A stretch of DNA of 64,000 bases from the NCBI GenBank assembly GCA_024275365.1, contig JAJRZG010000157.1, forward strand, positions 18 through 64,017, read 5' to 3'. Numbering within the stretch: the first letter of the stretch is position 1; every line of letters starts with the position of its first letter. Of the stretch, positions 40,842-64,000 are shown one piece after another. The notes under the pieces were generated by a model. It was not told where the DNA came from and ran no database searches. It saw nothing but the letters and a program-made list of their open reading frames with translations. The translations under genes and the position numbers were made by a program. Source of the stretch: Planctomycetota bacterium. Lineage in GTDB: Bacteria > Planctomycetota > Phycisphaerae > Phycisphaerales > UBA1924.

Positions 40842-40874
40842 GCAAGGCGATAGCATTTGGTAGTGAAAGAGCGA

Positions 40875-43445: not shown

Positions 43446-43460
43446 TCGGAGCACAACCGA

Positions 43461-46905: not shown

Positions 46906-46919
46906 CCACTCGTCAGTGG

Positions 46920-49213: not shown

Positions 49214-50401
49214 ATGGGTAACGCAACGAGAACCGAGGTTGAATCTCCGCTTGCAACGGACTTTCTCAATATTCGAAGTCTGTTGTCTGAAGATGAGATT
49301 ACAATCCAGGAGGCTGTCGCACGGTTTGTGGATGAGCGGGTCATCCCGCTTATGGGTGATGCGTTTGATGAGCACCGGTTTCCTCAAGAACTCATCCCAG
49401 AGATTGCGGAGATGGGCTTGCTTGGGTGCAGCATCGATGGGTACGGCTGTGCCGGGCTCAACAGCGCGTGCAGCGGGCTGGTGTGCCAGGAGCTTGAGCG
49501 GGGGGACTCGGGGATTCGCAGCTTTACATCGGTGCAGAGCAGTCTGTGCATGTACCCGATCTTTACCTATGGGAGTGATGAGCAAAAGGAACGGTGGCTG
49601 CCTCAGATGGCTTCGGGTGAAGTGATCGGGTGCTTTGGGCTGACCGAGCCCGACGGGGGGTCGGACCCGGGAAACATGAAGACCAACGCCAAGCGAGATG
49701 GGAGCGACTGGGTGCTCAACGGGTCAAAGGCGTGGATCACCAACGGAATCATGGCGGATATCGCGATTGTCTGGGCATCGACCAGCGAGGGAGTGCGTGG
49801 GTTTATCGTTGAGAAGGACATGCCCGGCTACACAACTCGGGAAATCACACGCAAGTTTTCGCTTCGGGCCTCGGACACCGCTGAGTTATTCTTTGACAAT
49901 GTGAGGCTTCCCGAGGCGAGTATGCTGCCGGGGGTTCGTGGGCTGCGTGGGCCTCTGAGTTGCCTGACACAGGCAAGGTTCGGTATCGCCTGGGGCGTGA
50001 TCGGAGCTGCGCAGGCGTGTTTCAGTGAGGTGCTCGAATATACCAAGGTTCGAGAACTCTTCGGACGGCCACTCTCGCACACGCAGACGGTGCAGCTTCG
50101 TCTTGCCGACATGAGCAGGCGGATCTCGACGGCTCAACTACTTGCATTACAGCTTGCCCGGCTTAAGGACAACGGGCAGTTGCACCACAGCCAAGTGTCA
50201 ATGAGCAAGTGGAACAACACGCGGATGGCTCTAGATATTGCGAGGGATGCGAGGGACCTGCTGGGCGCGAGTGGGATCAGCGTGGAGTTCTGCGCGATCC
50301 GGCACATGCTGAACCTGGAGAGTGTTGTGACTTATGAGGGGACCGAGACTATCCACGAGCTTATCGTTGGGCGCGAACTCACGGGGCATAATGCGTTCTA
50401 A
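49214..50401 (+). CDS. gcdH: glutaryl-CoA dehydrogenase-type acyl-CoA dehydrogenase
   Basis: FPQELIPEIAEMGLLG, ERGDSGIRS, GCFGLTEPDGGSDPG, WITNG, YEGTETIHELIVGRELTG. The overall pattern matches GcdH rather than short/medium-chain ACADs. Confidence 0.85.
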   Translation: MGNATRTEVESPLATDFLNIRSLLSEDEITIQEAVARFVDERVIPLMGDAFDEHRFPQELIPEIAEMGLLGCSIDGYGCAGLNSACSGLVCQELERGDSGIRSFTSVQSSLCMYPIFTYGSDEQKERWLPQMASGEVIGCFGLTEPDGGSDPGNMKTNAKRDGSDWVLNGSKAWITNGIMADIAIVWASTSEGVRGFIVEKDMPGYTTREITRKFSLRASDTAELFFDNVRLPEASMLPGVRGLRGPLSCLTQARFGIAWGVIGAAQACFSEVLEYTKVRELFGRPLSHTQTVQLRLADMSRRISTAQLLALQLARLKDNGQLHHSQVSMSKWNNTRMALDIARDARDLLGASGISVEFCAIRHMLNLESVVTYEGTETIHELIVGRELTGHNAF

Positions 50402-50421: not shown

Positions 50422-50985
50422 TTAGGCCTTGGGAGGCAGATACATTTTGATCAGGCGATCGGCAAGAGCACTGCACCGGCTGTAGATATCTGCGTATACG
50501 GGCTCGGATTCGACTTCGGAATAGCCGCGAGTCAACTGCGTCAGGTCGGCCCCCTGCACAATCTGGTCCGCCATCTCGAAAAGCACACCGTCTTCTTTGG
50601 CGATGTGGTTGCGCAATAACTCTATAAAGGCCTCGCCTTCATAGAGGATTCGGAGCATCGCGTTCTCGTCACCACTGTCAGCGGCTTCGATGGCATCACT
50701 GATCTTCTGCACATGGACCCGCCCCATCTCGTGCTCGCGGAGCATGCACCCGATCGGGCCACCCTCGCGTGATATGCCTTGGGATTCGAGTTGGGGGAAC
50801 AACCTCTGCTCTTCTTTGCAGTGGTGGCACTTGTCGGCAAAGCCCCGGAAAAACTCAACAAACGGCTCGAGCAACTCGGCGGATGCCCGGCCTGACTCTC
50901 GGGAGTTCGCAAGTGCAATCTCGAAACAATCAAGCACACGGAGGATGACCTGGTGCTCTTGGCGGAGGCGGTTGGTGGTTTCCAA
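50422..50985 (-). CDS. hemerythrin-like (HHE cation-binding) domain protein
   Basis: LRQEHQVILRVL..., HHCKEEQRLFP, MLREHEMGR, NHIAKEDGVLF are His/Glu ligand contexts of hemerythrin-like domains. Start uncertain: TTG 50985 with AAGGA 7 nt upstream is chosen; the track ATG 51192 overlaps the upstream gene. Confidence 0.6.
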   Translation of the reverse strand: METTNRLRQEHQVILRVLDCFEIALANSRESGRASAELLEPFVEFFRGFADKCHHCKEEQRLFPQLESQGISREGGPIGCMLREHEMGRVHVQKISDAIEAADSGDENAMLRILYEGEAFIELLRNHIAKEDGVLFEMADQIVQGADLTQLTRGYSEVESEPVYADIYSRCSALADRLIKMYLPPKA

Positions 50986-51112
50986 TGGATTGTCCTTTCG
51001 AGGTGAGATGCGCGATCGGGTGGATGTATTGGAAGCACCCTCAGGTCTGACATGGGTCACAGAGTTGTGGTACACAGAGTTGCTTTGCGCTCGATATGGT
51101 GTTGTTTCCGTC

Positions 51113-52339
51113 CTAAACTTTGGCCTTTTTGAGTGATTCAATAAACTCTGAAAGCTGGTTGGAGATATTATCTTCATCGAACTGTCGCGCATCGACCATA
51201 TCGGCTTCGATCATAATGTGCGGCACTCCCGCTTCGGTATAGCCGGGGAGGCGACGCTTGACATAACTGTTCCAAATACCGCAGCTTGCATTCCAGTGGC
51301 AGACGATGCCATCAGCACTGTAGTCGCGGACCATATCGAGGGTCCAGTCGAGTATCCACTGTGTCGAGCGGTTCATGGTGTTCCAGATGTAGCGGTCCAC
51401 GAGGCTGTCCATGGCGTTGTCGGCATCAAACTTGAACCACCAGCTGTGCGTGTAGGTGCTGGCGACAAAGACACAGTTGCGTTCAGCGGCAAACTGGGCG
51501 AGCCAGTTTTTGCGGGGCCAGATGGGGATAGCGTCCCAGATGAGGCGGACCTCTTCCTCCTGGATGAACGACTGGTTCTGCTCGACGCGGTCGGTGAGTT
51601 CGTCAAAGAGGGACTGGTAGTAGACGGTGCATTCGGGCAGGCCGCGGGCGATGACAATCGGTGCCATGGCGGCGAAAGCATCGGTGTTTGACCACGGGGT
51701 TGGCACCTTTCTGGCAAGTTCGAGGCACTCTTGCCACAGGTGGTTGGACCTGTCAGACTCGGCGACGATCTCACGGAGCTTCGTTTCACTGAAGGTCGTG
51801 CCGAATCGCTTGCAGATGTCTGCGAGGTGTTCTTCCATCTGGTTCTTGAAGTCGGCCTTTTCCTCGGCATTGTGTTCTTCGCGCTTGGCTAGCCTTTGCG
51901 TACGGAGAACATAATGCGGGACATCCTGCCCCCGCTCTTTGCAGATAGACTGCACTTGGTCGCCCCAACGCTCCACGACATTGCACTGAGAGTTGCACGC
52001 ATAAAAGAGGTCGGGCTTGGGCAGGCCGTGAATCGGCGACTCGACATCACCGAGCAACACGCCGATATCGGAGAGGGCGTAGGAGCAGACCTTGGGCGCG
52101 TGGAGGCCCCAGGCGTTGGTGCGGTCGATCGCGGCGAGCGAGTAGGGCTTGGTTGCATCGCGGACTGGGGAGAGTGCCCCGAGCATGGCGGCGTGGTTTT
52201 CTGGATAGACCGGCATGATGCCCGCAGCGAGGAGGGCCTCGGCTGGCGCAAACGCCGAGCACCATGCGATCGGCATCCCGTCGGCCTTGATCTTGTCATA
52301 GAAAGAGAAAATATCAAAATGCGTCTTGAGCTTCATCAT
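51113..52339 (-). CDS. stand-alone 2-hydroxyacyl-CoA dehydratase / benzoyl-CoA reductase (BcrB/C, HgdA/B) family subunit
   Basis: MMKLKTHFDIFSFYDKIKADGMPIAWCSAFAPAEALLAAGIMPVYPENHAA is the typical family N-terminus. Conserved-looking Cys at WCS, VCSY, YACNSQC, CHWNASC. No paired second subunit is adjacent. Confidence 0.7.
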   Translation of the reverse strand: MMKLKTHFDIFSFYDKIKADGMPIAWCSAFAPAEALLAAGIMPVYPENHAAMLGALSPVRDATKPYSLAAIDRTNAWGLHAPKVCSYALSDIGVLLGDVESPIHGLPKPDLFYACNSQCNVVERWGDQVQSICKERGQDVPHYVLRTQRLAKREEHNAEEKADFKNQMEEHLADICKRFGTTFSETKLREIVAESDRSNHLWQECLELARKVPTPWSNTDAFAAMAPIVIARGLPECTVYYQSLFDELTDRVEQNQSFIQEEEVRLIWDAIPIWPRKNWLAQFAAERNCVFVASTYTHSWWFKFDADNAMDSLVDRYIWNTMNRSTQWILDWTLDMVRDYSADGIVCHWNASCGIWNSYVKRRLPGYTEAGVPHIMIEADMVDARQFDEDNISNQLSEFIESLKKAKV

Positions 52340-52658
52340 TGTTATATTCGCCCTGTGTTGGTCGAAGCCCGCCCTGGTTATCCCGGGACTTGCGTCGAGT
52401 GTAGATAAGCACGAACGCCCGGCACGCGGCCACTGAGCATTCTTTGCAGTTGGATCCAAAGTCGTCTGGAGTTGGTGATCGGCTCATCACCTCAAACCCG
52501 AGCGACTCATACAGTTCGATTGTTTCTTCTGCTCGTGATGGTTCAACCAGATGCCGGCGCTTCCACCCAGCCGCTGCGAGCACCGGATCGGCGCGGAGCG
52601 AGAACTCAAGCGGCGTGTCGTCTTCATCTTTGGGCATCAGGTGAATATCTGCGTGCAT
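52314..52658 (-). CDS. small Cys-containing protein (hypothetical), coupled to the reductase operon
   Basis: ATG lies 15 nt after the upstream ATPase stop. AEETIELYESLGFEVMSRSPTPDDFGSNCKEC. The 3' end overlaps the next gene by 26 nt. Confidence 0.45.
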   Translation of the reverse strand: MHADIHLMPKDEDDTPLEFSLRADPVLAAAGWKRRHLVEPSRAEETIELYESLGFEVMSRSPTPDDFGSNCKECSVAACRAFVLIYTRRKSRDNQGGLRPTQGEYNNDEAQDAF

Positions 52659-52673: not shown

Positions 52674-53507
52674 CTATCGTGTCTCACTATGGGTCGTGCA
52701 TGTAGCGTCACTCTCGGCAAGTATCTTCAGACGGCGTTGTGCAAGGATGGCTGCGCCCATAGCGGCGACATACTGCACCATTTCTGGAGGTGGGACATTG
52801 ACCTTTGCGTTAAGGCTTGTGCTCACACCAGTCCCCATGGTCTCAAACCGCAGTATACCACCGATGAGTGTGTACTCGGGCTCAGCGCGGACCCGCTTCA
52901 TAAGCTGAACAGAGCGATCGACGAGCGATGTGATCGCGCCCTGCATGATGTCGGCGGGAGCAGTGCCCAGCGACAGATGGTTGATGACCTCGGACTCGGC
53001 GAACACCGCGCAGACACCGGAGATCGGGACCGCCTCCTTGGATGTAGCGGTGAGCGCGCAGATTTCTTCGGTCTTGAAGTTCATGTAGCGGGCGGTTTTT
53101 TCGAGGAACGCCCCTGTGCCCGCAGCACACTTATCGTTAAGTCGGAACGAGATGACTTTGGCTTCCTCGTCCAGTCGGCTTGCCTTCATAGTTTGGCCAC
53201 CAACATCGAGGAGTGTCCGCGTGCCTGGGAAGAGGAATGATGCGCCGCGGGCACTGGCGGTCAGGTCGGTAACATGGAGGTCTTTAAAGTCGGCCTGGTG
53301 GCGACCAAAGCCGGTTGCAATAACATAGTCAATGTCACTCGTTCGCAAACCCGATTTCTCAAGGCATCTCTCATAGACCTCGTGTGCAACCTCAGTGAGC
53401 TTGAACCCGGTGGGTCTCATCTCTCGAGCGAGGATCGTGCTGTCTTCGTCGATAATAATGGCCTTGGTGTAGGTCGATCCGATATCGATGCCGGTAGTGA
53501 TATTCAT
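52674..53507 (-). CDS. BcrA/BcrD/BzdQ/HgdC-type ATPase subunit (ASKHA fold, [4Fe-4S]-bridging)
   Basis: [46 protein letters not shown]. Confidence 0.85.
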
Positions 53508-54328
53508 TCGGAGGCCCCCACTGCGTCTCGAGGTTGTCGACTGAGCTTGATCTGGTCGAGTGCGTAGAGGGCAGCTCCCAGCGCACCCATATAATGTGAG
53601 TCTTTACTGACATTGAGCGTGACTTCGAGTTTGTCTTCCATCGCCTGAATCATGGCGATGTTGCGGGCGACGCCGCCGCTGAAAGTGATCTCTTCATCGA
53701 GCCCGACTCGGCGCATCAGTGAGAAGGATCGCACAGCGATAGACTGATGCACACCCCAGAGGATGTCCTCGACCTTTTTGCCCTTGCCAAGCCACGAGAG
53801 CACCTCGGACTCTGCAAAGACCGTGCAAGTCGTGCTGATTCGCACGGGCTTTGTGTACCTGAGGGCTGTTGCGCCCAACTCATTGAGCGGGATATCGAGT
53901 GCGCTGGAGGCAGCGCCGAGGAACCGCCCCGTGCCTGCAGCACACTTGTCGTTCATACAAAAATCCTCGATCTCACCGGCTGCGCTAACGCGGATGGCTT
54001 TGGTGTCCTGCCCACCCATGTCCAGCACGGTGCGCGTTTTGGGGAACATGTGGACAGCACCCCGCCCGTGGCAACTGATCTCGGTGACCTGGGCATTGCC
54101 AAAGGTCACACGGTAGCGTCCATACCCGGTCCCGATGATGAACTCGACCTCGGTCTCACGGATTTCCTGCTCTTCGAGCGCTTTGCTATATGCGTTTTCA
54201 GCTGCCTGCACAACATTGGCACCCGTGTCGATGAGCGACCGACCGACGATGTGGCCTTGCTCATCTATGATGACTGCCTTGGTTTGTGTTGAGCCGACAT
54301 CGACTCCTGCTGCATATGCCATGGGCAC
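53504..54328 (-). CDS. second, distinct BcrA/BcrD/BzdP-type ATPase subunit
   Basis: [46 protein letters not shown]. 4-nt overlap with the downstream ATPase gene. Confidence 0.85.
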
Positions 54329-54336
54329 ACCTCGTT

Positions 54337-55632
54337 CTATTTGACCAAAGACTGGTTCCGCCTGGCAGCCAGCCCCTCAAAGAATGCGTCGATACGGTTT
54401 TTCATCTGCGCCTCGGAAACGACTCGGCGGTCCATCATGTCCGATTCAATAAACAGCGTGGCGATGTCCCGGTGCTCGGTCAGGTAACGCCTGCCGTCGG
54501 CGAGCCCGGTGGAGACGGTTCGGCAGCTCTTGATCGGGTGATAAACGACCGCGTCAACATTGAACTCATCAATCATGCCCTCGAGCATCTGATCCTGGTG
54601 AAACATGCTGTCCATCGCGTCGCGGACGCTGAGCAGGGTTCCCTCTGCAAGGCTTGCGACGGGGTCTTCGAGTGAGTACTCGAACCCGCGGTTCGCGCCG
54701 CCGGATGCGAACCACAGGTAGGTCGAGTTGATAAAGGTGCCACCCCACTCGGTGAAGAGCTCGTTAAAGCGTCGGAAGATGGGGTAGCAGGGCACGCCGA
54801 CAAAGACGAGGCGGTAGACCTCTTCGGAGAGTGTGCCGATGCCGTGGGCAGCCTTGTACTCCATCTCTTCGACAAGCTCCTGGAAGAACTTGGCACCCTC
54901 GGGCGAGCCACGGAAGCCGTTGGCAACACCGAGATAGATAGTACCGTCGGTGAGGGCATTGAAGAGTGAGGGGCGACTCTTGTTGAGTTCGATGACATTC
55001 TTCCAGCCGACGCTTACCTCGTTGGCGTGGGCGAGGGTCTCCCGGAGCTTGTCGATATCAAACTTTTTGCCTGTGACCTCTTCTAAGGTTGCGATCAACT
55101 CCCAGAGCTGTGCCTCGACATAGCGCCGATCGTTCTCAAAGTCGTGTTTGTCGATAGTGCCGTAGTCGTTGCGGTCACGGGTGCCGGGAACATCGATCGT
55201 GACGACCGGGATATTGTGCATGCGTTCCCATATCTCGGCCCACTTGATATAAGTATTGCAGGCGTTGGTGAGGACGGCGATGCTTGGCTTTGGGATCCTC
55301 CCCATGGGGTGCTTGCCGGCGTTGAGCTGCACCGCGACATCGGCCTTGACATAGCCGCAGATATCGGGCGAATAGCCGTAATCTTCTGCTTTGTCGAGAT
55401 ACTCGTGCGAGACACGCCGGACGGCTGTCTGCAATGAGTTGATCTCGGGGAAGACGACCGGGAGGTCGAATGTCTTGAGCATCTCGTTGAGGCTGCCCAT
55501 CACGAACACATAGGCACTCTGCCCGCCCTGCTCGGCACACTGATTGAGCGATTCAAACCAGTCACGGAAGAGCTGAGCGCCGTCGCGGTTGCCACGGCCG
55601 ACAAGGGTGTCTGTTGAAGCCTGTTCTGCCAT
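54337..55632 (-). CDS. benzoyl-CoA reductase subunit B / BzdO-like (BCR/HAD family)
   Basis: 431 aa. [28 protein letters not shown]..., [17 protein letters not shown]. Family-typical layout and size for the beta subunit. Confidence 0.75.
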
Positions 55633-55649
55633 CGCTTTGTCCTCCGCCC

Positions 55650-56816
55650 TCAGGCAAACAGGAGGTTTTCCAGGAATGTTTCAACTTGCAGCTCGAGCTG
55701 CTCAAACGAGGTCATGTTTTCCTCGAACTCACTGACGAAGTAGGGGATGCCGCGATCATCGAGCGCGTGGGTGTATGCCACCTGCTCTTCGAGGCCGGGC
55801 TCGCACATTTTGGCTGCTGCCACGATGACAGCGTCGGCGTGCGCATGGTCAACCCTCTTGAGGAGCATCTCCTCCTTGAGCTTGCGGAGGTCGTGCTGGA
55901 CAGGGCTGTAGGACGATCGTTCGATGTATGCTTCGGCCAGTGCGAGCAGAGGGTCGCTCCCCGCGGGGATGTCTTCAGTGATCCAACGCAGCCCGATGAG
56001 AAAATCGTCAGCAACGACATAGCATGTCCTCCCGAGCATCCGCACAAGATCGAGCGGCGGCTGCTCGCAGAAGGCTCCCTCAAACACGATGCGAACACGG
56101 TCCTCTCGCTTCGTGGTTCCGGTGATGATCTGTGGAAGAATGTGCGAGAGTAGTGCGTTGTGCTCTTCGCGGGGAATGAGGCCCCCGATCGAAACGAGGC
56201 AGTACGCATCCTCGGCGGCGATCAGCCAGGGCGTGTTGCGTTTTATATCGTAGAGTTCACGCAGGAGTCGTCTGTTCTCGTTGAAGATCGCGATAGAGTT
56301 GTCGAGTGCTTCATCGTTAACTTTGGCACCAGCGACTTTCTCAATGACTCGCTTTATCCGGTCGTACTCATCGCGCAGATACGCTTGGCTGTGCGCCGAG
56401 TTGGGGTTCTGTGGTAGATAGAGAATCTGGCAGGGATAGTCGAAGTGGCGACCCCAGATAGCTGCCAAGTTGCGGGCTGCGTCGCAGATCGGGTGCGAGA
56501 CAAACAGGTCGAGCATGAGGTCGCCCTTGAGCGCGACTTGCAGCCCTGTCTTGAGAATCGAACACAAATAAGAGCCAAAGTGAGAGTCTGAGAGCGTCGG
56601 CTCAACAGGCGCGCCTCGTATCTTGACTGGCAACATGCCCGCTGCGTGAGCGATTTCTTCGGGGAAGTAGACCTGGAAGTGCCCGAGAACCTTCCCGCCT
56701 TGTTCACGCCATCGCTCAACGGTCGGGAATGTTGCGTCTTCGACCGTTTCTCGACAGGCATAGAGCACTTCATCGAGCGGTTTGCCTTGCCATTCTGTAA
56801 AGACAGGTGTGTGCAT
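55650..56816 (-). CDS. benzoyl-CoA reductase subunit C / BzdN-like (BCR/HAD family)
   Basis: 388 aa from ATG 56816 (GAGGA 9 nt upstream). KVLGHFQVYFPEEIAHAAGMLPVKI, YLCSILK, HPICDA, KMCEPG. Confidence 0.75.
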   Translation of the reverse strand: MHTPVFTEWQGKPLDEVLYACRETVEDATFPTVERWREQGGKVLGHFQVYFPEEIAHAAGMLPVKIRGAPVEPTLSDSHFGSYLCSILKTGLQVALKGDLMLDLFVSHPICDAARNLAAIWGRHFDYPCQILYLPQNPNSAHSQAYLRDEYDRIKRVIEKVAGAKVNDEALDNSIAIFNENRRLLRELYDIKRNTPWLIAAEDAYCLVSIGGLIPREEHNALLSHILPQIITGTTKREDRVRIVFEGAFCEQPPLDLVRMLGRTCYVVADDFLIGLRWITEDIPAGSDPLLALAEAYIERSSYSPVQHDLRKLKEEMLLKRVDHAHADAVIVAAAKMCEPGLEEQVAYTHALDDRGIPYFVSEFEENMTSFEQLELQVETFLENLLFA

Positions 56817-56855
56817 CTTGGGATTCCTCTGCAATAGCGCCCGTGGCGCTCATAC

Positions 56856-59321
56856 TCATCTGTGGTCAGCCATTCCGCTCTTTCTCGGATATTCCCAGCC
56901 GGGCAGGTCGATGTCCTTGCAGGCGTAGTTCATCTTGGGAGGCCTCGCACCTCGATCGAGTAGCCTGACCAAACCGCTGTTGATATAGGGGTTCTTGCGT
57001 GGATCGAACACCTCACCGGTTTCTTGCGCGAGCGATGCGTCGTCCTGTTCTCGTGAGAGCTGTGCCTTGAAGAGTGCCCGTGAATATGGCGCATCCTTGG
57101 CCATCTGGCGGGCTTGCTCATAGCCTCGGCGAAGAGCTTCGAGTTCGTCATCAAACAGGCCGTTGGAGAGGCCAATCTGGTAGGCCCTGGTGGCGGTGAG
57201 GCCCTGATCAAAGAGCTCATACGCCCCGGAATGCCCGACACCGATTCGCTTGAGCTCGCTTGCGCCTGCAAAACCGGGGAGGATGGCGTAGTCGAGCTCG
57301 GGCTGGTTGTAGATGGGCTTTTCACACCACACCGAAGTGCGTTCGAGCGTGTCGTAAACATAGCCAAAGGCACGGACATCGTACCGCAGATCGAGGAAGT
57401 AGGTAAACTCGGCCCCGCCGCCCCACTTCTCACCAAAGACACCGACAGATGCCACCGGGCTGCGTTGGATGGTGCGGAAGAGCTCGACCGCATTTCGGCT
57501 CGAGGCTGCGGCATCCTCCTCACTCAGCGGGGTGTACCCCTTGTCACGCTCGAACCAGCCTCGGTTAAACTCCTTCGCATCGGCACCGAGCATCCTCATG
57601 CCGGTGCCCGCGGCTGTGAAGAGCACCGCCCCGCAGCGCCCGTTCTCGTGGAGGTTCAGCACTCTGTGATAGGCGTGGGCTAGCTGGTCGATAACAGCGT
57701 GATTGAAGACATTGCCTCGCAGTGGGCAGTTAAAGACAATGCTCGCGACACGGTCTCGGGCGGAAGGCTCGTAGAGTTTCAGGTCGCCGTAGCAGCCGCG
57801 GTATGTGCCCGAGGCAAGATCAAGCTCGGCAACGGGGGTGTGGTAGTAGATGCCATAGCCGAGCAGGTGTGTAAGGTTTCGTTTCTTAAGTTCGTGCAGC
57901 AGGCAGGGCTTGCCGGTGCGCGGCCCTCGGAGCCCGTCGGCATCGAGCATGTCGAGCATGTGGGGGTCGGTGGCGTTCTCATCTCGGGCGCGGTGGATGA
58001 GCGTGAGCACGCCGTGAATCGTGAGTTCGTCGATCATCGCATCGACAAGCTCAACCAACCCAACCTTGAACCGCAGCCCAGCACGGCAGCAGGTGTTGAT
58101 CTGCCCGGGGGTCGCGTAGCCGTCTTGGATAAGATCGAGCACATAGAGGCAGAGCGGCAGGACATATCGCCGGAACGCACGCCCGGCGGTGTCATCAGCA
58201 AGGACGACAGCAAGCAACGCATCGCAACTCTTGATCTTGCCCTCGGCACGATCACGCTCGGCAGCCTCGAACATCGACCAGTACGCCTCTCGGGAGGTCT
58301 GGCCCTTGGCGATATACTTACGAGACTCGGGGTCGAAGACCTCAGCAGGCTTAGCGCGAGCGTCTGTTGTCCACTTAAAGAAGCCACACCGGTCCGGGGA
58401 GTTGATGCCGGAATGCCCTGATTTTTCGAGGTGGGCGATCCAGTCGGTGTAGTACACGCCATCGCGTGTGTAGATGCTCTTGAGCCTGTCGTGATCGGGG
58501 AGTGCCTGCCCCAAGTGACGAGACGACTCGGTGTAGGGCATGTGCCCAGTCTGGTCGAGGACGGTGAAAGGGTTTGCGGTGAACATCGACCAGAGCCCAC
58601 CAAGATCAATGATGTCTTGGCCGGTCTTGATGTCCCACGACATGATGGCAGCCATGCCTTGGAAGATGGGGTCAGCGATGTAGCCGTGATGGTCAACCGG
58701 GAGCGCCATCACGACCTTTTCGAGGACCTGATCAGCGAAGACCACGCCGAGTGCGTATGTCTCCGCGGAGGCATACTTGCCCTTCATTACATCAATGAGG
58801 CGGTTGAAGTCGAAGGGGAAGTAGCCGTGAACGGTCAGGAACTTGCTGCGGAGTACCTCCGTCTTGAAGAGGATCGCAAGCTCTTCGGTGGTATGCGAGG
58901 AGGTATTGGAGAAGATCGCCGCAAGATGATCGGCATCCAGAGATTCTTCAAGTGCTCTAAATATCTTCTTCTTAATGTCGATCGCTTCGGTTGCCGCCTC
59001 CCAGACGATGTCGGCAGTAGCAAGATCGCTGTACGACTGCGTGAAGAAGGTGCGTGATTCAAGGGCCTTTGCGTCTTCTGGCCTGATGCGGGTTGCGCTA
59101 ACCTCGCCTGCCCACTTGGCGTTGAGCACCTCTCTGGCCCGATCGAGGGCTTCGCTGTTGACATCGAGGAGGACGACCTCGCAGTCGGTCTTGAGGAGCA
59201 GGTCGGCAGCGATGCCCTGGCCCATGGTACCAGCACCGATCACCGCGACACGACGCATCTCAATGATGCGTTTGACTGCCGACTCGATTGTCTTGTCTCC
59301 AAAGGAGAATACTCGCTTCAT
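56856..59321 (-). CDS. bifunctional 3-hydroxyacyl-CoA dehydrogenase (N-terminal) / enoyl-CoA hydratase-isomerase (C-terminal) fusion, 821 aa
   Basis: VAVIGAGTMGQGIAADL Rossmann start, then HAD C-terminal helical domains. C-terminal crotonase fold (FNCPLRGNVFNHAVIDQL...AVLFTAAGTGMRMLGADAKEF). Confidence 0.8.
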   Translation of the reverse strand: MKRVFSFGDKTIESAVKRIIEMRRVAVIGAGTMGQGIAADLLLKTDCEVVLLDVNSEALDRAREVLNAKWAGEVSATRIRPEDAKALESRTFFTQSYSDLATADIVWEAATEAIDIKKKIFRALEESLDADHLAAIFSNTSSHTTEELAILFKTEVLRSKFLTVHGYFPFDFNRLIDVMKGKYASAETYALGVVFADQVLEKVVMALPVDHHGYIADPIFQGMAAIMSWDIKTGQDIIDLGGLWSMFTANPFTVLDQTGHMPYTESSRHLGQALPDHDRLKSIYTRDGVYYTDWIAHLEKSGHSGINSPDRCGFFKWTTDARAKPAEVFDPESRKYIAKGQTSREAYWSMFEAAERDRAEGKIKSCDALLAVVLADDTAGRAFRRYVLPLCLYVLDLIQDGYATPGQINTCCRAGLRFKVGLVELVDAMIDELTIHGVLTLIHRARDENATDPHMLDMLDADGLRGPRTGKPCLLHELKKRNLTHLLGYGIYYHTPVAELDLASGTYRGCYGDLKLYEPSARDRVASIVFNCPLRGNVFNHAVIDQLAHAYHRVLNLHENGRCGAVLFTAAGTGMRMLGADAKEFNRGWFERDKGYTPLSEEDAAASSRNAVELFRTIQRSPVASVGVFGEKWGGGAEFTYFLDLRYDVRAFGYVYDTLERTSVWCEKPIYNQPELDYAILPGFAGASELKRIGVGHSGAYELFDQGLTATRAYQIGLSNGLFDDELEALRRGYEQARQMAKDAPYSRALFKAQLSREQDDASLAQETGEVFDPRKNPYINSGLVRLLDRGARPPKMNYACKDIDLPGWEYPRKSGMADHR

Positions 59322-59346: not shown

Positions 59347-60597
59347 TTAGCGTTGTGTTGTATCCTCGATGATTAACGCCGCGCCTTGGCCGCCCCCGAT
59401 ACACGCCGAGACGCAGCCATAACGCTCGCCTCGGTGGTCCATCTCATAGACCAGATCGGCGATCAGCCGCAGACCCGTTGCGGCAAGCGGGTGACCGATG
59501 GCGATCGCGCCGCCGTTGACATTGACGATCTCACGGGGGAGCTTGAGTTCTTTCTCCACGCCGAGGTATTGGGCGGCAAACGCCTCGTTGATCTCCCAAA
59601 GCCCAATATCGGATTGCTTGAGCCCCGCCCGCTGGAGCGCGACACCGATCGAAGGCACCGGCCCGCGACCCATGACCCGGGGCTCGACGCCACTAACACC
59701 AAACCCTGCGATTCTCCAGCGGGTCGAGAGGCCGAGTTCCTCCGCTCTCTCGCGCGAAGCGAGAACCGCAGCAGCACCACCATCGGCAATCTCACTGGCA
59801 TTCCCCGGTGAGACCAGCTTGTTGGGCGTAAAGCCGGGGAGTTTCTCAAGAATCTCCAGCGAGGTATTGCGGACACACTCATCGTGCGAGAGATGGACAG
59901 CCTGCCCATCCTGATCGACAGCATCGAGTGCGAACATGCCCCTCAGCAGCTCGCCACCATTGAGGTGGCTCTTGCGATTGGCAACCCGGGCGCGATCCTG
60001 CGAGATAACGGTAAACTCATCGCACTCGGCCCGCGTGATACCCATCCTCTTGCCATATTCGTCAGCAGTGAGCATCATCGCTGTGCCACCGAGGGTGTGA
60101 TTGAGTGAGGCGAGGATTGAATCCTCGACAGTTCCACCCTCTGCAAACTCCCAGAAGCTCGCCCCCGAGATGCGGCGCGATCTTATGATCTGCGGTGCCT
60201 GCGACATCGTCTCGGCTGCGGCACACAGCACCACCTGTGTATCATCGACGCAATCTGGCACAGCAATCTGCTGAAAGCCTGTGATAAGTGTCTGGATGCC
60301 CGAGCCACAGATGCGCTGCACCATGAACGAAGGGGTATCGACATCAAGCTCGCAGCGGAGGGCAATGTTGCGCGGGAAGTAGATATCCTGAGCACCGGGA
60401 GCAGTGAACTGATACACATTGGCACCAACCACCGCGTCGATATTCTGCCGGATGATCCCGGAACGGCTGATGGCTTCACACGATGCCAATGCTCCGAGTT
60501 GCTCGGCTGAAAATCCGCTCAACGCGCTACACTTGAGGCCGACAGGTGTCCGGGCGACGCCGGCGATGACGATATGTGGGAACTCACTCGATGCCAC
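59347..60597 (-). CDS. thiolase (acetyl-CoA C-acyltransferase)
   Basis: QRICGSGIQ (nucleophilic Cys), NVNGGAIAIGHPLAATG, SACIGGGQGAALIIE. Confidence 0.9.
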   Translation of the reverse strand: MASSEFPHIVIAGVARTPVGLKCSALSGFSAEQLGALASCEAISRSGIIRQNIDAVVGANVYQFTAPGAQDIYFPRNIALRCELDVDTPSFMVQRICGSGIQTLITGFQQIAVPDCVDDTQVVLCAAAETMSQAPQIIRSRRISGASFWEFAEGGTVEDSILASLNHTLGGTAMMLTADEYGKRMGITRAECDEFTVISQDRARVANRKSHLNGGELLRGMFALDAVDQDGQAVHLSHDECVRNTSLEILEKLPGFTPNKLVSPGNASEIADGGAAAVLASRERAEELGLSTRWRIAGFGVSGVEPRVMGRGPVPSIGVALQRAGLKQSDIGLWEINEAFAAQYLGVEKELKLPREIVNVNGGAIAIGHPLAATGLRLIADLVYEMDHRGERYGCVSACIGGGQGAALIIEDTTQR

Positions 60598-63500
60598 GGC
60601 TCATCCTTTGCGGTTTCTCTGTTCGAACCTCGATAACACTCTCACCGGGGTTCGTCTCGAACATCTCTTCCAGCTCTGACCGGAACACATCGAGCACTTT
60701 TTTGCGAACAATCTTTGCTGACGGCGTCAGCTCGCCCTTCTCAAGCGAGGGCTCGCGATTGGCAAGGATGAGACGACGGATCCGGGTGTAGGACTGCTCC
60801 AGCATCGGATTGATGCGCTCGAGTTCGGAGGCGAACAACTCCTTGATCGCCTTGCCCTCTTGGGCCGAGCTTGCAGTGATACCGCGAGAGGCAATCCACT
60901 CCTTCAGGCGACTTCGGTCCGGGTAAATGATCGCGCCGACATAGTCTTTGCCGCTACCGACGACGACCGCCTGTCGCACGAATGGGGACTCGTTGGTGAT
61001 TGTGTTCTCGATTCTCTGCGTAAGCACCTTCTCGCCCGTTGTCAGTTTGAAAGTGCCGTCCTTGCGTCCCAATATTTTGAGGCCATCGGGCGTGAACTCC
61101 CCGAGATCACCCGTGCGGAACCACCCGTCAGCATCGATGACATGGGCGGTCGCCTCTTCGTCTTCATAATACCCGAGCATGACATTCGGGCCCTTGATGA
61201 GTATTTCCTGGCTTGCGTCGATGCGGATGGAGACGCCGGGGATGGGGAACCCGACAAAGCCGCTGCGCCATGCTTCCGTGCCGGAGGTTATCGCAGCACA
61301 CGGCGAGGTCTCGGTCAACCCCCACCCCTCACGGACACCGATCCTATGCTCGCGGTATGCCGACTCGACATGAGCAGGAAGCGATGCAGCTGCGGTAAAG
61401 ACAAACCGAAGGCGACCACCAAAGACGACCCGCTCGACCTTAGTATCCTCGCGGCAACGGGTGATGAGCATGTCATGCACGCGAGGAACACTAAAGAATA
61501 TGGTGGGATCAAACAGTTTCCAGTTCTCAATGAGCCGATCTGTATCGCTGCCCTGTGAATCGCTCAGGCAGATCTGAGCACCGGTATAGAGCGACATAAA
61601 CCGTTCAAAGAGCGCACCAAAGCTGTGGTGCCAAGGCAGGTAGGTCAGGAAGATATCATGCTCCCCGACATCCCAGATCAACGAGAGTGCCTTCTGCTGT
61701 GATATAAGGTTTTTGTGACACAGTCGGACGCCCTTGGGTGGGCCGGTGGTTCCTGAGGTGTACATCAGCACGCACTGATCATCGGGACGAACAGCGTGGA
61801 TACGCTCAAGGACCGCCTGTTCGCTTGCGCCGCCGGGGCCGCCGAGTTCTGCGATAGGCGTGGCTCCCCATTGCACACACTTCTTGCACCCCTCGATGCT
61901 GAAGAACTCGTTGACACTGCCGCACGCCCCGCGATCAATCTTGTCGAGTTGGTGCTTGCCCGAGACAATGACCAGTCTGGGACGGGAATGCTGAATCACA
62001 TAAGCAACCTGAGCCGGGCGATGCCCCGCAAAGACCGGGACTGTAATCGCCCCGATGATCATGGTCGCGAGTTCAAGGATGTACATCCATGCGGAGTTTT
62101 CACAGACGAAACAAATCCTGTCACCCGGCCGGATACCTCGCGCAATGAGGTGAGCCGCGACACGGAAAATGCGGTCTCTGAACTCGGTCCAGCTCATGAC
62201 GACCTCGGTCTCCCCGTCGAGGTACCGCAAGTACGGCTTCTCACCCCATCGCTCGGCGCGATCAACAAGCACGATGCCGAGTGAGTCTTCATACTCACCA
62301 AGTGCGATCGTGTTGGTGTGCTCCTCACCGACTCGCTGGATGCCGATACTCTCATCGAGCCCGTGCGGCGTCGATTGGCAATAGGCCAGGCATGAATCCC
62401 GAAGTAAAGTCCGTGTGCGTTGGAACTGGAGATCGGTGGGAACAAACTGCTCGGTGGCCAAGTTAACTAGGCCCGAGCGGTGCTGTAACAGGTGAGAGGC
62501 TGCCAGGTAGACAATGTTGTTTGCGAGCTCCTTGATATGCGAGCCCCCGACACGCCCACCGACGCGAGCCGCGATCTCATGCACAACCCCACGCTCTATG
62601 CGTAAGCCGATGAGCCGATGAGCCGCGGCCTCGACCTCTTTGCACACCGGGAAGGGGGAGCGGATCATCTCGAGCTTGCTTCGGACGATCTGCTCGTCCT
62701 CGACATTGATGCATATCTCGAGTTTGATGAGGTGGTGACTGTCGAGCATCGTACCGATGCACACCAGTTCCTCCTTGCCCAGCTCGTAGAGCTCGATATT
62801 GATGTTGCGTTGCGACATGAGCTTCATGGATGCATACCCTCCGTTGGCTTTTTCTGCATCTCGGTGCCTTAAACGGATGGCGCGGGCCATGGACTCCTGC
62901 ACCCGATGCTCGAGCAACTCAAAGAGAGATTCCTCCCTCTTCAAGCCTGCCTGCCGGGCATAACGGCGAAGCGGGGTAAGGAGCCACTCCTCGGTGGGCA
63001 TCAGACGGACACTCTTGAGGTCATGATCGAGCGCGTCCCGGAATGTCTTGAGAGAGCTGGTGATGTGGCCAGCCGATTTGCGGATGATCGCCTGCCCACC
63101 TGCCCACACGCTGTCATAGGCATCTTCAGCCGTGTATGCGCCGCACCAGCGCCCCACCTCGAAGACCGCACGCGTGATCTCATCAACAAACTCTCGCTTG
63201 GACGGGTCTGCGCAGAGATCACCCATGCGCAGGTCGTTGAGCGAACCGTCGGGATTCACCACATGGATCAGCCCGCCTACATTGAGCACAATCGAGATCA
63301 TCGCCTTGTCAAACTCGATCCGTGCACCTGTCGCATCCGCGATATTCTCGCATGGATAGTCTCGCTCCGAGAGGATCGAGATGATCCGATCGCGCTCGGC
63401 ATCCCCCCCGCCCGCACAGATGATCCGGCCCTTGCCCTCGATGACATAGACTGCCTCGGTGCCAGTACCTCGCCTTGTCCCCGCTTGCAAAGCCACGCCT

Positions 63501-64000
63501 CGTACAACGCGATCGCACACTGCACGGATCATGTCGTCAGCCAACTGAGGAAGCCGACCTGGCAGAACAGATTCACGAATCTGATTTCTGAATGTCTGCA
63601 TCATCTCCTCAAAGATGATGCCGTTTGGAAGCATGAGCAAGATCGGCAGATTTTCCCGCACATCCTGAGGAGTGCGTAACCTCTCCTGCTCTGCAAGGTG
63701 CTCAAGAAACTTCGTAACATGCAGTGTGGCCGATGAAAGCTGCGCAGGATTGCAGCAGACCATCTGCAACTCCGGCACACCGTTGAGCGTCTCGGCTTCG
63801 AGCAGATTTGAGAAGATCCTGCCCTTGAGACCGAGCGTGTGGACCTCGCCGTTATCCTCGATGAGCAGCGATCGTTTCGCCTTGAGTTGCCGCGTGATGC
63901 CCCCGCCGCCGCGCCCGATAAAGCACTCGGCCTTGGTGTGCCAGAGGAATGCCACACCCAGTGACCCGGGGGGATGAACGCCGATCTCACCTCTGTTCAG
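60584..64000 (-). CDS. three-domain fusion: ketopantoate-reductase-like oxidoreductase + DUF2889-like domain + AMP-forming acyl-CoA synthetase (FAA1/COG1022-like); 5' end outside window
   Basis: The frame stays open upstream of the GTG at 63955 to the window edge. N-terminal LMLPNGIIFEE...IEFDKAMISIVLNVGGL (ApbA/PanE-like). Middle VGGRVGGSHIKELANN (DUF2889-like; from memory). C-terminal YTSGTTGPPKGV, GWGLTETS, WFRTGDLG, GRKDGTFKLTTGEKV. Confidence 0.75.
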   Translation of the reverse strand: MNRGEIGVHPPGSLGVAFLWHTKAECFIGRGGGGITRQLKAKRSLLIEDNGEVHTLGLKGRIFSNLLEAETLNGVPELQMVCCNPAQLSSATLHVTKFLEHLAEQERLRTPQDVRENLPILLMLPNGIIFEEMMQTFRNQIRESVLPGRLPQLADDMIRAVCDRVVRGVALQAGTRRGTGTEAVYVIEGKGRIICAGGGDAERDRIISILSERDYPCENIADATGARIEFDKAMISIVLNVGGLIHVVNPDGSLNDLRMGDLCADPSKREFVDEITRAVFEVGRWCGAYTAEDAYDSVWAGGQAIIRKSAGHITSSLKTFRDALDHDLKSVRLMPTEEWLLTPLRRYARQAGLKREESLFELLEHRVQESMARAIRLRHRDAEKANGGYASMKLMSQRNINIELYELGKEELVCIGTMLDSHHLIKLEICINVEDEQIVRSKLEMIRSPFPVCKEVEAAAHRLIGLRIERGVVHEIAARVGGRVGGSHIKELANNIVYLAASHLLQHRSGLVNLATEQFVPTDLQFQRTRTLLRDSCLAYCQSTPHGLDESIGIQRVGEEHTNTIALGEYEDSLGIVLVDRAERWGEKPYLRYLDGETEVVMSWTEFRDRIFRVAAHLIARGIRPGDRICFVCENSAWMYILELATMIIGAITVPVFAGHRPAQVAYVIQHSRPRLVIVSGKHQLDKIDRGACGSVNEFFSIEGCKKCVQWGATPIAELGGPGGASEQAVLERIHAVRPDDQCVLMYTSGTTGPPKGVRLCHKNLISQQKALSLIWDVGEHDIFLTYLPWHHSFGALFERFMSLYTGAQICLSDSQGSDTDRLIENWKLFDPTIFFSVPRVHDMLITRCREDTKVERVVFGGRLRFVFTAAASLPAHVESAYREHRIGVREGWGLTETSPCAAITSGTEAWRSGFVGFPIPGVSIRIDASQEILIKGPNVMLGYYEDEEATAHVIDADGWFRTGDLGEFTPDGLKILGRKDGTFKLTTGEKVLTQRIENTITNESPFVRQAVVVGSGKDYVGAIIYPDRSRLKEWIASRGITASSAQEGKAIKELFASELERINPMLEQSYTRIRRLILANREPSLEKGELTPSAKIVRKKVLDVFRSELEEMFETNPGESVIEVRTEKPQRMSRGIE

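Follow-up and report, generated by a model that had tools for sequence, protein, structure and literature searches.

A Phycisphaerales gene cluster for a predicted MBR-type ATP-dependent aryl-CoA reductase within a proposed benzoyl-CoA-type pathway

Introduction

Several described enzymes are related to the one encoded at the locus reported here. Closest among these is 3-methylbenzoyl-CoA reductase (MBR; MbdONQP), which is represented by PDB entries 9g87, 9gai, 9gal and 9gba. The BCR-type enzymes comprise BcrCBAD and BadDEFG (Thauera/Rhodopseudomonas; NCBIfam models TIGR02259-02263), and the BZD type is BzdNOPQ of Aromatoleum/Azoarcus (PDB 8s02), in which six cysteines of BzdN hold an [8Fe-9S] cluster (PMC11971306). 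The 2-hydroxyacyl-CoA dehydratases (HadBC with HadI, HgdAB with HgdC; PDB 3o3m, 4eht, 1hux) belong to the same superfamily and likewise combine HGD-D large subunits with an ASKHA ATPase and its bridging [4Fe-4S] cluster. According to a 2026 survey, BcrB and BcrC derive mainly from Pseudomonadota and Planctomycetota metagenome-assembled genomes (MAGs; PMC13101482). Here we describe an operon in a 64,000-nucleotide stretch of DNA (the window), for which an original prediction had proposed a class I reductase with the bzdNOPQ gene order in a planctomycete-like genome.

Results

The operon encodes two HGD-D subunits and two different ATPases

The ORF listing with translations revealed a minus-strand operon of four intact genes at positions 52674-56816, and its coordinates and spacing from gamma to delta (17 nt, 8 nt and a 4-nt overlap) were as originally predicted. 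The gamma gene (55650..56816, minus strand) encodes an MbdN/BcrC-like protein of the HGD-D family; its ORF extends over 55650-56834, with a TTG start giving 394 aa and the ATG at 56816 giving 388 aa. It is followed on the same strand by the genes for an MbdO/BcrB-like beta subunit of the HGD-D family (54337..55632, 431 aa), an MbdQ/BcrA-like alpha ATPase (53504..54328) and an MbdP/BcrD-like delta ATPase (52674..53507, 277 aa, overlapping the alpha gene by 4 nt), the latter two with the ASKHA fold. For alpha, a GTG start would give 274 aa, and translation beginning with the ATG at 54322 would give 272 aa. Since the exact 274-aa product was absent from the protein collection and homologues have 272 aa, the ATG is probably the true start, in which case the second gap would become 14 nt. 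The expected pairing of two HGD-D-type subunits with two differing ATPases was confirmed by Pfam (HGD-D 218 and 207 bits for genes 1 and 2; BcrAD_BadFG 215 and 173 bits for genes 3 and 4). The order gamma-beta-alpha-delta, or N-O-Q-P in Mbd/Bzd letters, was kept in 83 of 83 related loci.

In phmmer searches of the PDB, all four proteins matched 3-methylbenzoyl-CoA reductase best, with E-values reaching 1e-159, which excludes a chance match. Gamma scored 534 bits against MbdN (9g87_B, 58.9% identity), compared with 141 bits for HadC and 99 bits for BzdN, and beta scored 531 bits against MbdO (9g87_A, 53.3% identity), compared with 118 bits for HadB and 96 bits for BzdO. The alpha ATPase scored 409 bits against MbdQ (9gai_D) and 179 bits against MbdP, while delta showed the reverse preference, with 297 bits for MbdP (9gai_C, 56.5% identity) and 185 bits for MbdQ. 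Sequence identity between the two ATPases is only 37.8%, and they are orthologous to different Mbd ATPases, which rules out that they are recent duplicates. Both contain the N-terminal D-x-GST-x-TK ASKHA motif, and the predicted cluster-bridging cysteines can be read from both translations (NDKCAAGTG in each, with CTVFAESE in alpha and CAVFAESE in delta; C-x-VFAESE in general form).

Ligand conservation and phylogeny place the enzyme with MBR

The gamma subunit is predicted to transfer electrons through a [4Fe-4S] site of three cysteines, and its cysteines in YLCS, PICD and KMCEP are shared with MbdN and HadC. The three extra cysteines of BzdN were not found in gamma when the two were aligned; with three rather than six cluster cysteines, an [8Fe-9S] double cubane is not expected. 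The beta subunit is predicted to be catalytic, binding the aryl-CoA and the active-site [4Fe-4S] cluster. With BzdO as alignment reference (PMC11971306), beta Cys92, Cys125 and Cys370 correspond to BzdO Cys95, Cys128 and Cys380, and Glu63, Tyr94 and Tyr305 to Glu65, Tyr97 and Tyr298. In all 18 clade members checked, the residues that ligate the cluster, the catalytic Glu and the Tyr residues that bind the thioester were invariant. Beta residues Ala309, Arg371, Thr372, Val373, Tyr94, Tyr305 and Glu63 are identical to those of MbdO. The position of BzdO His131 is occupied by Tyr128 in the window clade and by Phe in MbdO and BcrB, a possible active-site difference judging from the alignment.

A neighbour-joining tree of beta subunits (200 bootstraps) recovered the window clade at 100% and joined it to MbdO and P0251, also at 100%. 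The BCR/MBR-type sequences, with two BcrB equivalogs carrying the TIGR02260 label (814 and 630 bits) among them, were all split from HadB-like and BzdO sequences at 86%. Together with the Mbd matches, the tree upholds the original assignment to class I ATP-dependent aryl-CoA reductases rather than to 2-hydroxyacyl-CoA dehydratases, and nesting inside dehydratase clades was not seen for the catalytic subunit. All four subunits fall below NCBIfam equivalog cut-offs (for gamma, 230 bits against 421 for benz_CoA_red_C), as do the Dch/Had/Oah-like neighbours of the relatives described below, so annotation here is by family and not by equivalog.

Neighbouring genes outline a proposed benzoyl-CoA-type pathway

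Directly upstream of gamma, as in 15 related loci, lies a gene for an 821-aa 3-hydroxyacyl-CoA dehydrogenase/enoyl-CoA hydratase fusion (56856..59321, minus strand; Pfam 3HCDH_N at 112 bits, 3HCDH and ECH_1). Next to it are a thiolase (acetyl-CoA C-acyltransferase) gene (59347..60597, minus strand; 416 aa; TIGR01930 312 bits, above the cut-off of 240.55), which is found in 18 related loci and in about 12 of these at 61-85% identity, and a gene for a 1123-aa acyl-CoA ligase (60584..63955, minus strand; AMP-binding at 240 bits, AMP-binding_C_3 and DUF2889), which is kept in 12 planctomycete-type loci. The ligase has an N-terminal extension of ~550 aa containing DUF2889 and is of the long-chain/FadD11-like type. 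No benzoate-CoA ligase model was among its 25 best NCBIfam matches, and its true substrate may therefore not be benzoate.

On the other side of the operon, a gene for a small conserved protein (52314..52658, minus strand; 114 aa, core ~70 aa, C-x2-C-x4-C motif) is the usual fifth operon gene: 63 of 77 related loci, and also locus L002, have a homologue behind delta. Its conserved core reads GWxRR..DP.RA.E..ELY.SLGFEV...DFG..C..C....C..YV.IYTR. The protein had no sequence match in Pfam, NCBIfam or the PDB, and a Foldseek search of the PDB with its AF2 core (pLDDT 80-92) returned nothing better than E = 0.6. The adjacent gene (51113..52342, minus strand; ~409 aa; Pfam HGD-D 170 bits) encodes an orphan third HGD-D protein with no partner subunit. 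Its best matches were HadB in both NCBIfam (164 bits) and the PDB (131 bits), it joined the dehydratase set of the beta tree at 61% bootstrap, and it is 31% identical to an HGD-D gene product of locus L003 that is paired with a third ATPase; orthologues occupy the same position in L001, L021 and L023. A hemerythrin HHE-domain protein follows (50422..51192, minus strand; Pfam Hemerythrin 68 bits), whose true start is probably internal because homologues have 174-194 aa. Hemerythrin homologues were present in the examined flank of 15 loci, and in L001, L002 and L003 they immediately follow the operon. On the plus strand, 49214..50401 encodes a 395-aa glutaryl-CoA dehydrogenase of the decarboxylating GcdH type, the top PDB matches of which are glutaryl-CoA dehydrogenases (453, 440, 434 and 390 bits). 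The gene adjoins the operon, at 73-84% identity, in most of the 14 related loci with an acyl-CoA dehydrogenase. All eleven ORFs of the locus are intact, and their lengths agree with those of homologues.

Dch/Had/Oah-like genes lie within 10 kb of the operon in 22-25 of 83 related loci. Best NCBIfam matches were dearomat_had (257 bits) for the Zn-ADH and dearomat_oah (203 bits) for a 378-aa crotonase, and dienoyl_CoA_hyt (159 bits) was second best for a 256-aa crotonase, all three below the equivalog cut-off. Locus L001 encodes four subunits with 82-88% identity to those of the window, and there these genes are immediately upstream of the ligase; none lies inside the window, which ends at the corresponding position. 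No gene for a ferredoxin or a 2-oxoglutarate:ferredoxin oxidoreductase was found near the operon, and within the window C-x2-C-x2-C-x3-CP motifs occur only in a YgfK-like protein of the neighbouring purine cluster.

The clade is widespread across phyla

The named homologues of the Dxs encoded in the window (25939-27966), which are 70-82% identical to it, all come from Phycisphaerales, Phycisphaerae or Planctomycetota, in line with the planctomycete-like background that had been proposed; on this basis the host is assigned to Phycisphaerales. Identity within the reductase clade is 72-80%, and its members occur in hundreds of species-level genomes and at least 13 phylum-level lineages. For beta, a Zixibacteria MAG encodes a subunit of 80% identity, and MAGs of Acidobacteriota, Chloroflexota and Actinomycetota encode subunits of 72-78% identity; this cross-phylum identity equals that of Dxs within the order and therefore indicates horizontal transfer. 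Databases already label clade relatives as benzoyl-CoA reductase subunits. The anticipated extension to a new lineage is thus not new at the sequence level, with relatives in many phyla and bcrB/C in Planctomycetota MAGs already published; the same lineage-extension point was made for Krumholzibacteriota in a 2024 paper (PMC10936416). No member of the window clade was found among named or solved-structure matches, and by that evidence the clade has not been studied biochemically.

Discussion

Homology, conserved ligands, the position in the tree and the genes nearby all support the reading of this locus as encoding an MBR-type class I ATP-dependent benzoyl-CoA/aryl-CoA reductase, acting by the mechanism of its relatives within a complete benzoyl-CoA-type pathway, and we consider this reading highly probable. 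The activity itself, its physiological substrate, whether benzoyl-CoA or an analogue with a substituted ring, and the source of electrons are inferred.

On the model of characterised relatives, the alpha and delta ATPases would form a heterodimer with one [4Fe-4S] cluster between them, held by two conserved cysteines per subunit. A low-potential donor, whose gene is not identifiable in the window, would reduce this cluster, and ATP hydrolysis would lower the potential of the electron for its transfer to the gamma-subunit [4Fe-4S] cluster and on to the three-cysteine [4Fe-4S] cluster of beta, the fourth iron of which would carry water. The aryl-CoA thioester, bound by the conserved Tyr94 and Tyr305, would receive a hydrogen atom from the cluster-bound water, followed by an electron and a proton through Glu63, giving a cyclohexa-1,5-diene-1-carbonyl-CoA. 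In the proposed pathway, the CoA ligase would make the aryl-CoA and the reductase would open the aromatic system, with hydration, oxidation and ring hydrolysis by the Dch-, Had- and Oah-like enzymes whose genes are seen in the closest relatives, past the end of the window. The 821-aa fusion and the thiolase would convert the C7 dicarboxyl-CoA to glutaryl-CoA, and glutaryl-CoA dehydrogenase would yield crotonyl-CoA.

It is conceivable, if somewhat doubtful, that the enzyme is a BCR/MBR-type ATP-dependent reductase with a physiological substrate other than benzoyl-CoA. Candidates would be a ring-substituted benzoyl-CoA (methyl, hydroxy, halo or amino), a bicyclic or partially reduced aryl-CoA of the kind used by tetrahydronaphthoyl-CoA reductases, or benzoyl-CoA arising only via beta-oxidation of a phenylalkanoate activated by the unusual ligase of this locus. 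The nearest relative to have been characterised takes its name from 3-methylbenzoyl-CoA; Thauera chlorobenzoica MBR, however, reduces benzoyl-CoA too. Divergence points towards another substrate, with Mbd identity of only 53-59%, a separate branch for the window clade and Tyr128 in place of Phe, but the remaining mapped active-site positions match MbdO. Likewise, the FadD11/long-chain-like ligase with its DUF2889 extension and the sub-cut-off scores of the Dch/Had/Oah-like neighbours would suit an unusual substrate, whereas the ordinary glutaryl-CoA dehydrogenase at the end of the lower pathway fits an unsubstituted C7 ring-cleavage product.

It is quite unlikely, in our view, that recent transfer or mis-binning has left the cluster as an island without function in its Phycisphaerales host. 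GC content is 0.60-0.65 over 1-40 kb and only 0.54-0.59 over 40-64 kb, and the cross-phylum beta identities resemble those of Dxs within the order; against this, the eleven ORFs are intact and of homologue length, and the Phycisphaerales-type Dxs is on the same contig. Moreover, many independent Planctomycetota/Phycisphaerae MAGs (L003, L012, L013, L017, L035, L041 and L045) show the same planctomycete-type arrangement, so that the phylum can be taken to have the cluster as an established feature. A 2-hydroxyacyl-CoA dehydratase (HgdAB/HadBC/FldBC-like) with two activator genes is very improbable, since the general HGD-D family assignment in Pfam, the NCBI name '2-hydroxyacyl-CoA dehydratase' of several homologues and the HadB-like orphan gene 230 nt downstream are opposed by HadB/HadC equivalog scores of 151/172 bits against cut-offs of 750/700, PDB scores a quarter of those for Mbd, the 86% split in the tree, two non-identical co-translated ATPases in a fixed order in 83/83 loci, and a neighbourhood of ring-pathway and glutaryl-CoA genes in place of genes for amino-acid fermentation.

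We conclude that the locus, most probably encoding an MBR-type reductase, is an intact Phycisphaerales example of a very widespread clade that metagenome surveys have already brought to light. Compared with the dehydratases, the window enzyme has the same three-cysteine active-site cluster; those enzymes use one homodimeric activator catalytically in place of the two ATPases, beta is 28% identical to HadB and falls in another clade, and only the orphan gene (51113-52342) is dehydratase-like. With BzdNOPQ it shares enzyme class, overall architecture and the BzdO Cys, Glu and Tyr equivalents in beta. The enzyme is not of the Bzd type, in view of scores of 94 and 105 bits against bzdN and bzdO cut-offs of 454 and 449, ~27% identity to BzdO, the lack of the three BzdN cysteines and Tyr in place of His131. 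Nor does the originally proposed bzdNOPQ gene order, in which P (delta) precedes Q (alpha), hold, since here alpha precedes delta, as in the order written bcrCBAD. The BCR-type systems share that gene order, the family and the cluster ligands, and their NCBIfam models are the top-scoring ones (230, 202, 223 and 145 bits), far under the equivalog cut-offs of 421, 487, 578 and 313 bits; beta is 32-33% identical over aligned columns to two sequences passing the BcrB cut-off, and alpha, aligning to model positions 227-432 only, is without the N-terminal extension of BcrA. MbdONQP has the same subunit number and sizes, including the short ~270-aa alpha ATPase, 53-59% identity where measured (gamma, beta and delta), three cluster cysteines in gamma, and the Cys/Glu/Tyr set with Ala309, Arg371, Thr372 and Val373 in beta, and it is monophyletic with the window clade at 100% bootstrap. 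Unlike MbdONQP, the window sequence falls in a clade of its own, supported at 100% and spanning many phyla, with Tyr128 rather than Phe beside the active-site cluster and with loci that, as scored in this clade only, add the small C-x2-C-x4-C protein, hemerythrin and DUF2889-ligase.

Evidence for an MBR-type class I aryl-CoA reductase

The operon at 52674-56816 comprises four intact, consecutive genes on the minus strand. These encode a gamma subunit (55650-56816; 388 aa from an ATG at 56816), a beta subunit (54337-55632; 431 aa), an alpha ATPase (53504-54328; 274 aa from a GTG) and a delta ATPase (52674-53507; 277 aa). The four open reading frames span 52674-56834. For the alpha ATPase, an ATG start at 54322, giving 272 aa, agrees with the lengths of its homologues. 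The genes are spaced by 17 nt and 8 nt (14 nt if the alpha ATG is used), followed by a 4-nt overlap. Pfam assigned an HGD-D domain to both gamma and beta, and a BcrAD_BadFG domain to both alpha and delta. Four different subunits, two of the HGD-D type and two non-identical ASKHA ATPases, are thus encoded in one operon, as in class I reductases. Each ATPase carries the motifs NDKCAAGTG and C(T/A)VFAESE, which align with the same motifs of MbdP and supply the two cysteines per subunit that would bind a subunit-bridging [4Fe-4S] cluster. Since open reading frames, spacing, Pfam domains and cysteine motifs were all found, the original prediction had described the operon accurately, including its 17-nt and 8-nt gaps, its 4-nt overlap and the NDKCAAGTG and C-x-VFAESE motifs in both ATPases.

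A sequence search of the PDB was decisive for the probable identity of the four proteins, each of which matched a different subunit of 3-methylbenzoyl-CoA reductase best. Gamma scored 534 bits to MbdN (vs 141 to HadC and 99 to BzdN) and beta 531 bits to MbdO (vs 118 to HadB and 96 to BzdO). The third gene product scored 409 bits to the alpha ATPase MbdQ and 179 to MbdP, and the fourth 297 bits to the delta ATPase MbdP and 185 to MbdQ. BLASTP identities to the Mbd subunits were 58.9% (gamma), 53.3% (beta) and 56.5% (delta). Among NCBIfam models, the Thauera-type benz_CoA_red_C, B, A and D ranked first with 230, 202, 223 and 145 bits, vs equivalog cut-offs of 421, 487, 578 and 313 (TIGR02263, 02260, 02259 and 02261) that were not reached. 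The bzd-type and HadB/HadC models ranked below these, and their cut-offs were not reached either (94, 105 and 182 bits vs 454, 449 and 380 for TIGR03190, 03191 and 03192; 151 and 172 bits vs 750 and 700 for HadB and HadC).

Two possibilities had been raised against a class I enzyme. Recent duplication of the ATPases was ruled out, as the two are 37.8% identical to one another (BLASTP) and each is orthologous to a different Mbd subunit. The other possibility, that the catalytic subunit nests inside dehydratase clades, was addressed with a neighbor-joining tree of 42 beta-type sequences (412 columns, 200 bootstraps, bipartitions counted). Outgroups came from an exhaustive HMMER search of a library of representatives at 50% identity. 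A tblastn search of the beta subunit against plasmids, seeking annotated Bcr, Bzd or Mbd references, returned only matches below 30% identity; BcrB references were library representatives labelled by the TIGR02260 equivalog cut-off in an NCBIfam scan. Two genuine BcrB equivalogs were found among these representatives (P0288, 814 bits; P0289, 630 bits), to each of which the window's beta subunit is ~32-33% identical over aligned columns. In the tree, the beta subunit and 18 relatives from many phyla formed one clade with 100% bootstrap support, which was joined by MbdO and the representative P0251, again at 100%. All BCR- and MBR-type sequences were split from the HadB-like sequences and BzdO at 86%. 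The beta subunit is therefore placed with a characterised reductase and apart from the dehydratases, and the suggested nesting was not seen. The tree covers the beta subunit; gamma was placed by its score ratio (534 vs 141 bits). Being closest to and monophyletic with MbdO/N/Q/P, and having a short alpha ATPase and a three-cysteine gamma subunit, the operon is well supported as encoding an MBR-type class I aryl-CoA reductase in a Phycisphaerales genome.

Cluster ligands, active site and proposed mechanism

The features described for the catalytic subunit are three cysteines binding an aqua-[4Fe-4S] cluster, a conserved glutamate, and tyrosine residues that bind the thioester oxygen (PMC11971306). 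In our alignment, beta Cys92, Cys125, Cys370, Glu63, Tyr94 and Tyr305 correspond to BzdO Cys95, Cys128, Cys380, Glu65, Tyr97 and Tyr298, so that the beta subunit has the full set and all three cysteine ligands are kept. None of these six residues varies among the 18 clade members, and all are shared with MbdO, BcrB and BzdO. Since HadB also has this set, it is necessary for the assignment and does not discriminate. BzdO has His131 next to the active-site cluster; at that site MbdO and BcrB have Phe, and all 18 clade members and P0251 have Tyr (Tyr128; codon at ~55249-55251, minus strand). Otherwise the active site is nearly identical to that of MbdO. As a literature search on the 9g87/9gai structures, 3-methylbenzoyl-CoA reductase and MbdONQP found no paper, the active-site roles in MbdO were taken from the BzdNO work. 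The gamma subunit has just three of the six BzdN cluster cysteines, as do MbdN and HadC, and is accordingly expected to bind a [4Fe-4S] cluster rather than an [8Fe-9S] double cubane.

In class I enzymes, ATP is hydrolysed stoichiometrically as the aromatic ring is reduced by two electrons. By analogy, alpha and delta would form an ATP-dependent electron activator around the bridging [4Fe-4S] cluster. ATP hydrolysis would then drive electron transfer to the [4Fe-4S] cluster of gamma and further to the aqua-[4Fe-4S] cluster of beta, where the ring would first receive a hydrogen atom and then an electron and a proton via Glu63. These ring-reduction steps are modelled on the BzdNO proposal (PMC11971306), and the whole mechanism, including the ATP-coupled two-electron ring reduction, is inferred from such analogy. 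As to the electron donor, no ferredoxin gene was found near the operon within the window. A YgfK-like Fe-S protein (46920-49256) was considered and rejected, as none of the 83 related loci has it and it is part of the adjacent purine cluster.

A benzoyl-CoA-type pathway around the operon

A search for contigs encoding the window's own gamma subunit gave no record; gene context beyond the window was taken from 83 fetched homologous loci, in all of which the order gamma-beta-alpha-delta is constant. Upstream of the operon and on the same strand lie genes for an acyl-CoA ligase, a thiolase and an 821-aa 3-hydroxyacyl-CoA dehydrogenase/enoyl-CoA hydratase fusion. The ligase (60584-63955, minus strand, 1123 aa) has an N-terminal extension of ~550 aa with DUF2889, and its AMP-binding part resembles FadD11 and long-chain ligases; no benzoate-CoA ligase model was among its 25 best NCBIfam matches. 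It is kept at 54-78% identity in 12 planctomycete-type loci. Because of this non-benzoate-type ligase and the Tyr128 substitution, the sequences leave room for a substrate that may be a substituted or side-chain-bearing aromatic acid. Downstream, on the opposite strand and inside the window, is a gene for a glutaryl-CoA dehydrogenase of the canonical kind, which scored 453 bits against PDB 2eba.

Genes for Dch, Had and Oah were not found within the window, which extends 45 nt beyond the ligase gene on its upstream side. In the closely related locus L001, whose four subunits are 82-88% identical to those of the window, the ligase gene is directly preceded by genes for an SDR, a 256-aa crotonase and a Zn-ADH, and another crotonase-family gene (380 aa) starts before the fetched locus begins; in a further relative, L003, the corresponding 378-aa crotonase is complete. 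In these relatives, the best NCBIfam match of the Zn-ADH is dearomat_had (257 bits) and that of the 378-aa crotonase is dearomat_oah (203 bits), while dienoyl_CoA_hyt is the second-best match of the 256-aa crotonase (159 bits), all under cut-off. In 22-25 of the 83 loci, Had-, Dch- and Oah-like genes occur no more than 10 kb from the operon. Judged by these matches, the window and the homologous loci together appear to encode a whole benzoyl-CoA-type pathway that starts with the ligase and ends with the glutaryl-CoA dehydrogenase.

L002 lies on a 995-kb contig (sample 3300032138), and its gamma subunit matches ones named for Gammaproteobacteria/Arenicellales MAGs. Here a TetR regulator precedes the operon, which is followed by hydantoinase/acetone-carboxylase-like genes (Hydantoinase_A/B, Acetone_carb_G; 15053-21164). 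The arrangement hints at some connection with the carboxylation of an aromatic ketone or a phenol-type substrate.

Conserved accessory genes

Only three genes of the locus are truly unexplained; they lie downstream of the operon and encode a small protein, an orphan HGD-D protein and a hemerythrin. The small protein (52314-52658, minus strand, 114 aa) comes after the delta gene in 63 of 77 related loci, with homologues at 14194-14517 in L001, 14175-14429 in L003 and 14144-14422 in L002; a word-indexed search found six homologues. Its conserved core of ~70 residues, GWxRR..DP.RA.E..ELY.SLGFEV...DFG..C..C....C..YV.IYTR, contains a C-x2-C-x4-C motif in which the C-x2-C pair is invariant and the third cysteine is present in ~70% of sequences. 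It had no match in Pfam, NCBIfam or PDB sequences. The core was modelled confidently by AF2 (pLDDT 80-92), and a Foldseek comparison of it with the PDB gave nothing better than E = 0.6, and thus no fold relative. A standard ferredoxin was dropped as an explanation, since just two or three cysteines are conserved. The protein may serve this type of reductase as a fifth subunit or as an electron carrier.

Next follows an orphan HadB-like HGD-D gene (51113-52342, minus strand) with no partner large subunit, the product of which falls with the dehydratases in the neighbor-joining tree. A second kind of orphan HGD-D, found upstream of the ligase in other planctomycete loci (L003 4543-6599), has a third BcrAD-type ATPase as its partner and is 31% identical to that of the window. 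Both kinds could be homodimeric dehydratase- or DCCP-like enzymes tied to the pathway. The hemerythrin HHE-domain protein (50422-51192, minus strand) also follows the operon in L001, L002 and L003, and a homologue is present in the fetched flank of 15 loci overall, which suggests oxygen or NO sensing, or protection of an oxygen-labile reductase.

Host, distribution and horizontal spread

The planctomycete background proposed in the original prediction is confirmed, because every named homologue of the window's Dxs is from Phycisphaerales, Phycisphaerae or Planctomycetota. The proposed extension of the enzyme class to a new lineage was not borne out as new. Class I bcr genes have been reported in Planctomycetota MAGs (PMC13101482), in Krumholzibacteriota (PMC10936416) and in marine Acidimicrobiia (PMC12008989), so that the extension is known at the annotation level, and relatives occur in many phyla. 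A protein database listed more than 120 clusters at ≥73% identity, many already named benzoyl-CoA reductase subunit C or 2-hydroxyacyl-CoA dehydratase. In a collection of species-representative genomes, at least 586 stretches matched, and the best 80 of them (72-80% identity) came from Planctomycetota, Acidobacteriota, Chloroflexota, Actinomycetota, Gemmatimonadota, Zixibacteria, Ignavibacteriales, Elusimicrobia, Eisenbacteria, Myxococcota and several proteobacterial orders. According to database records, the MAGs derive from soil, marine sediment, vents and oxygen-minimum zones. No member of the clade was among the named or solved-structure matches.

GC content drops from 0.60-0.65 (window 1-40000) to 0.54-0.59 (40001-64000), with the step at ~40 kb, where two catabolic clusters start. 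Together with the cross-phylum identity of 72-80%, this drop points to horizontal spread of the operon clade, and the step is consistent with acquisition of the two clusters by horizontal transfer.

We also observed an anaerobic purine/uric-acid-type cluster at 34399-49256. It encodes a selenium-dependent xanthine dehydrogenase (TIGR03311, 893 bits, over cut-off), an SsnA-like aminohydrolase, a hydantoinase/carbamoylase-family amidase, a CN-hydrolase, a PLP enzyme, a second Mo-hydroxylase and the YgfK-like Fe-S protein, which is truncated. This content is unusual for a planctomycete and supports an anaerobic or facultative lifestyle.

Broader reading and comparison with known systems

It is conceivable, and in our view rather unlikely, that the clade makes up a fourth subtype of class I aryl-CoA reductase, distinct and dominant in the environment, which horizontal transfer has carried into at least 13 phylum-level lineages. 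Were this so, the 70-residue C-x2-C-x4-C protein could be a dedicated fifth component (a new electron carrier or extra subunit) and the hemerythrin an oxygen sensor or scavenger, and the two would enable ring reduction in mostly aerobic or microaerobic lineages. The substrate range could also differ from that of MBR, given Tyr for Phe at position 128 and the unusual DUF2889 ligase.

The window itself is of confirmatory value, with a complete, clean operon and three conserved accessory genes. Studies of class I benzoyl-CoA reductases have dealt with a few denitrifying and phototrophic Proteobacteria. The window's clade is much more widespread in metagenomes; it is tightly conserved between phyla (72-80% identity) and appears to be accompanied by a full lower pathway. 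If active, it would make ATP-driven dearomatisation common among uncultured heterotrophs, Phycisphaerales included, and would bear on aromatic-carbon turnover at low oxygen.

Whereas 2-hydroxyacyl-CoA dehydratases use a single homodimeric activator, the window's operon has two distinct ATPases and its beta subunit lies on a separate branch of the tree. Among the aryl-CoA reductases, BCR-, MBR- and BZD-types have been distinguished and the BzdNO clusters described (PMC11971306). In Mbd/Bzd letters the window's order is N-O-Q-P, which corresponds to bcrCBAD; the bzdNOPQ order originally proposed does not hold, as there the ATPases run P-Q and here a Q-like gene precedes a P-like one. BzdN has a six-cysteine [8Fe-9S] site, whereas the window's gamma subunit misses three of those six cysteines. 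Thus the prediction of a class I aryl-CoA reductase and not a dehydratase stands, on PDB scores and tree, while its Bzd subtype falls on equivalog scores, gamma cysteines and ATPase order. Relative to MbdONQP, the window's clade is a sister at 53-59% identity rather than an orthologue inside the proteobacterial group.
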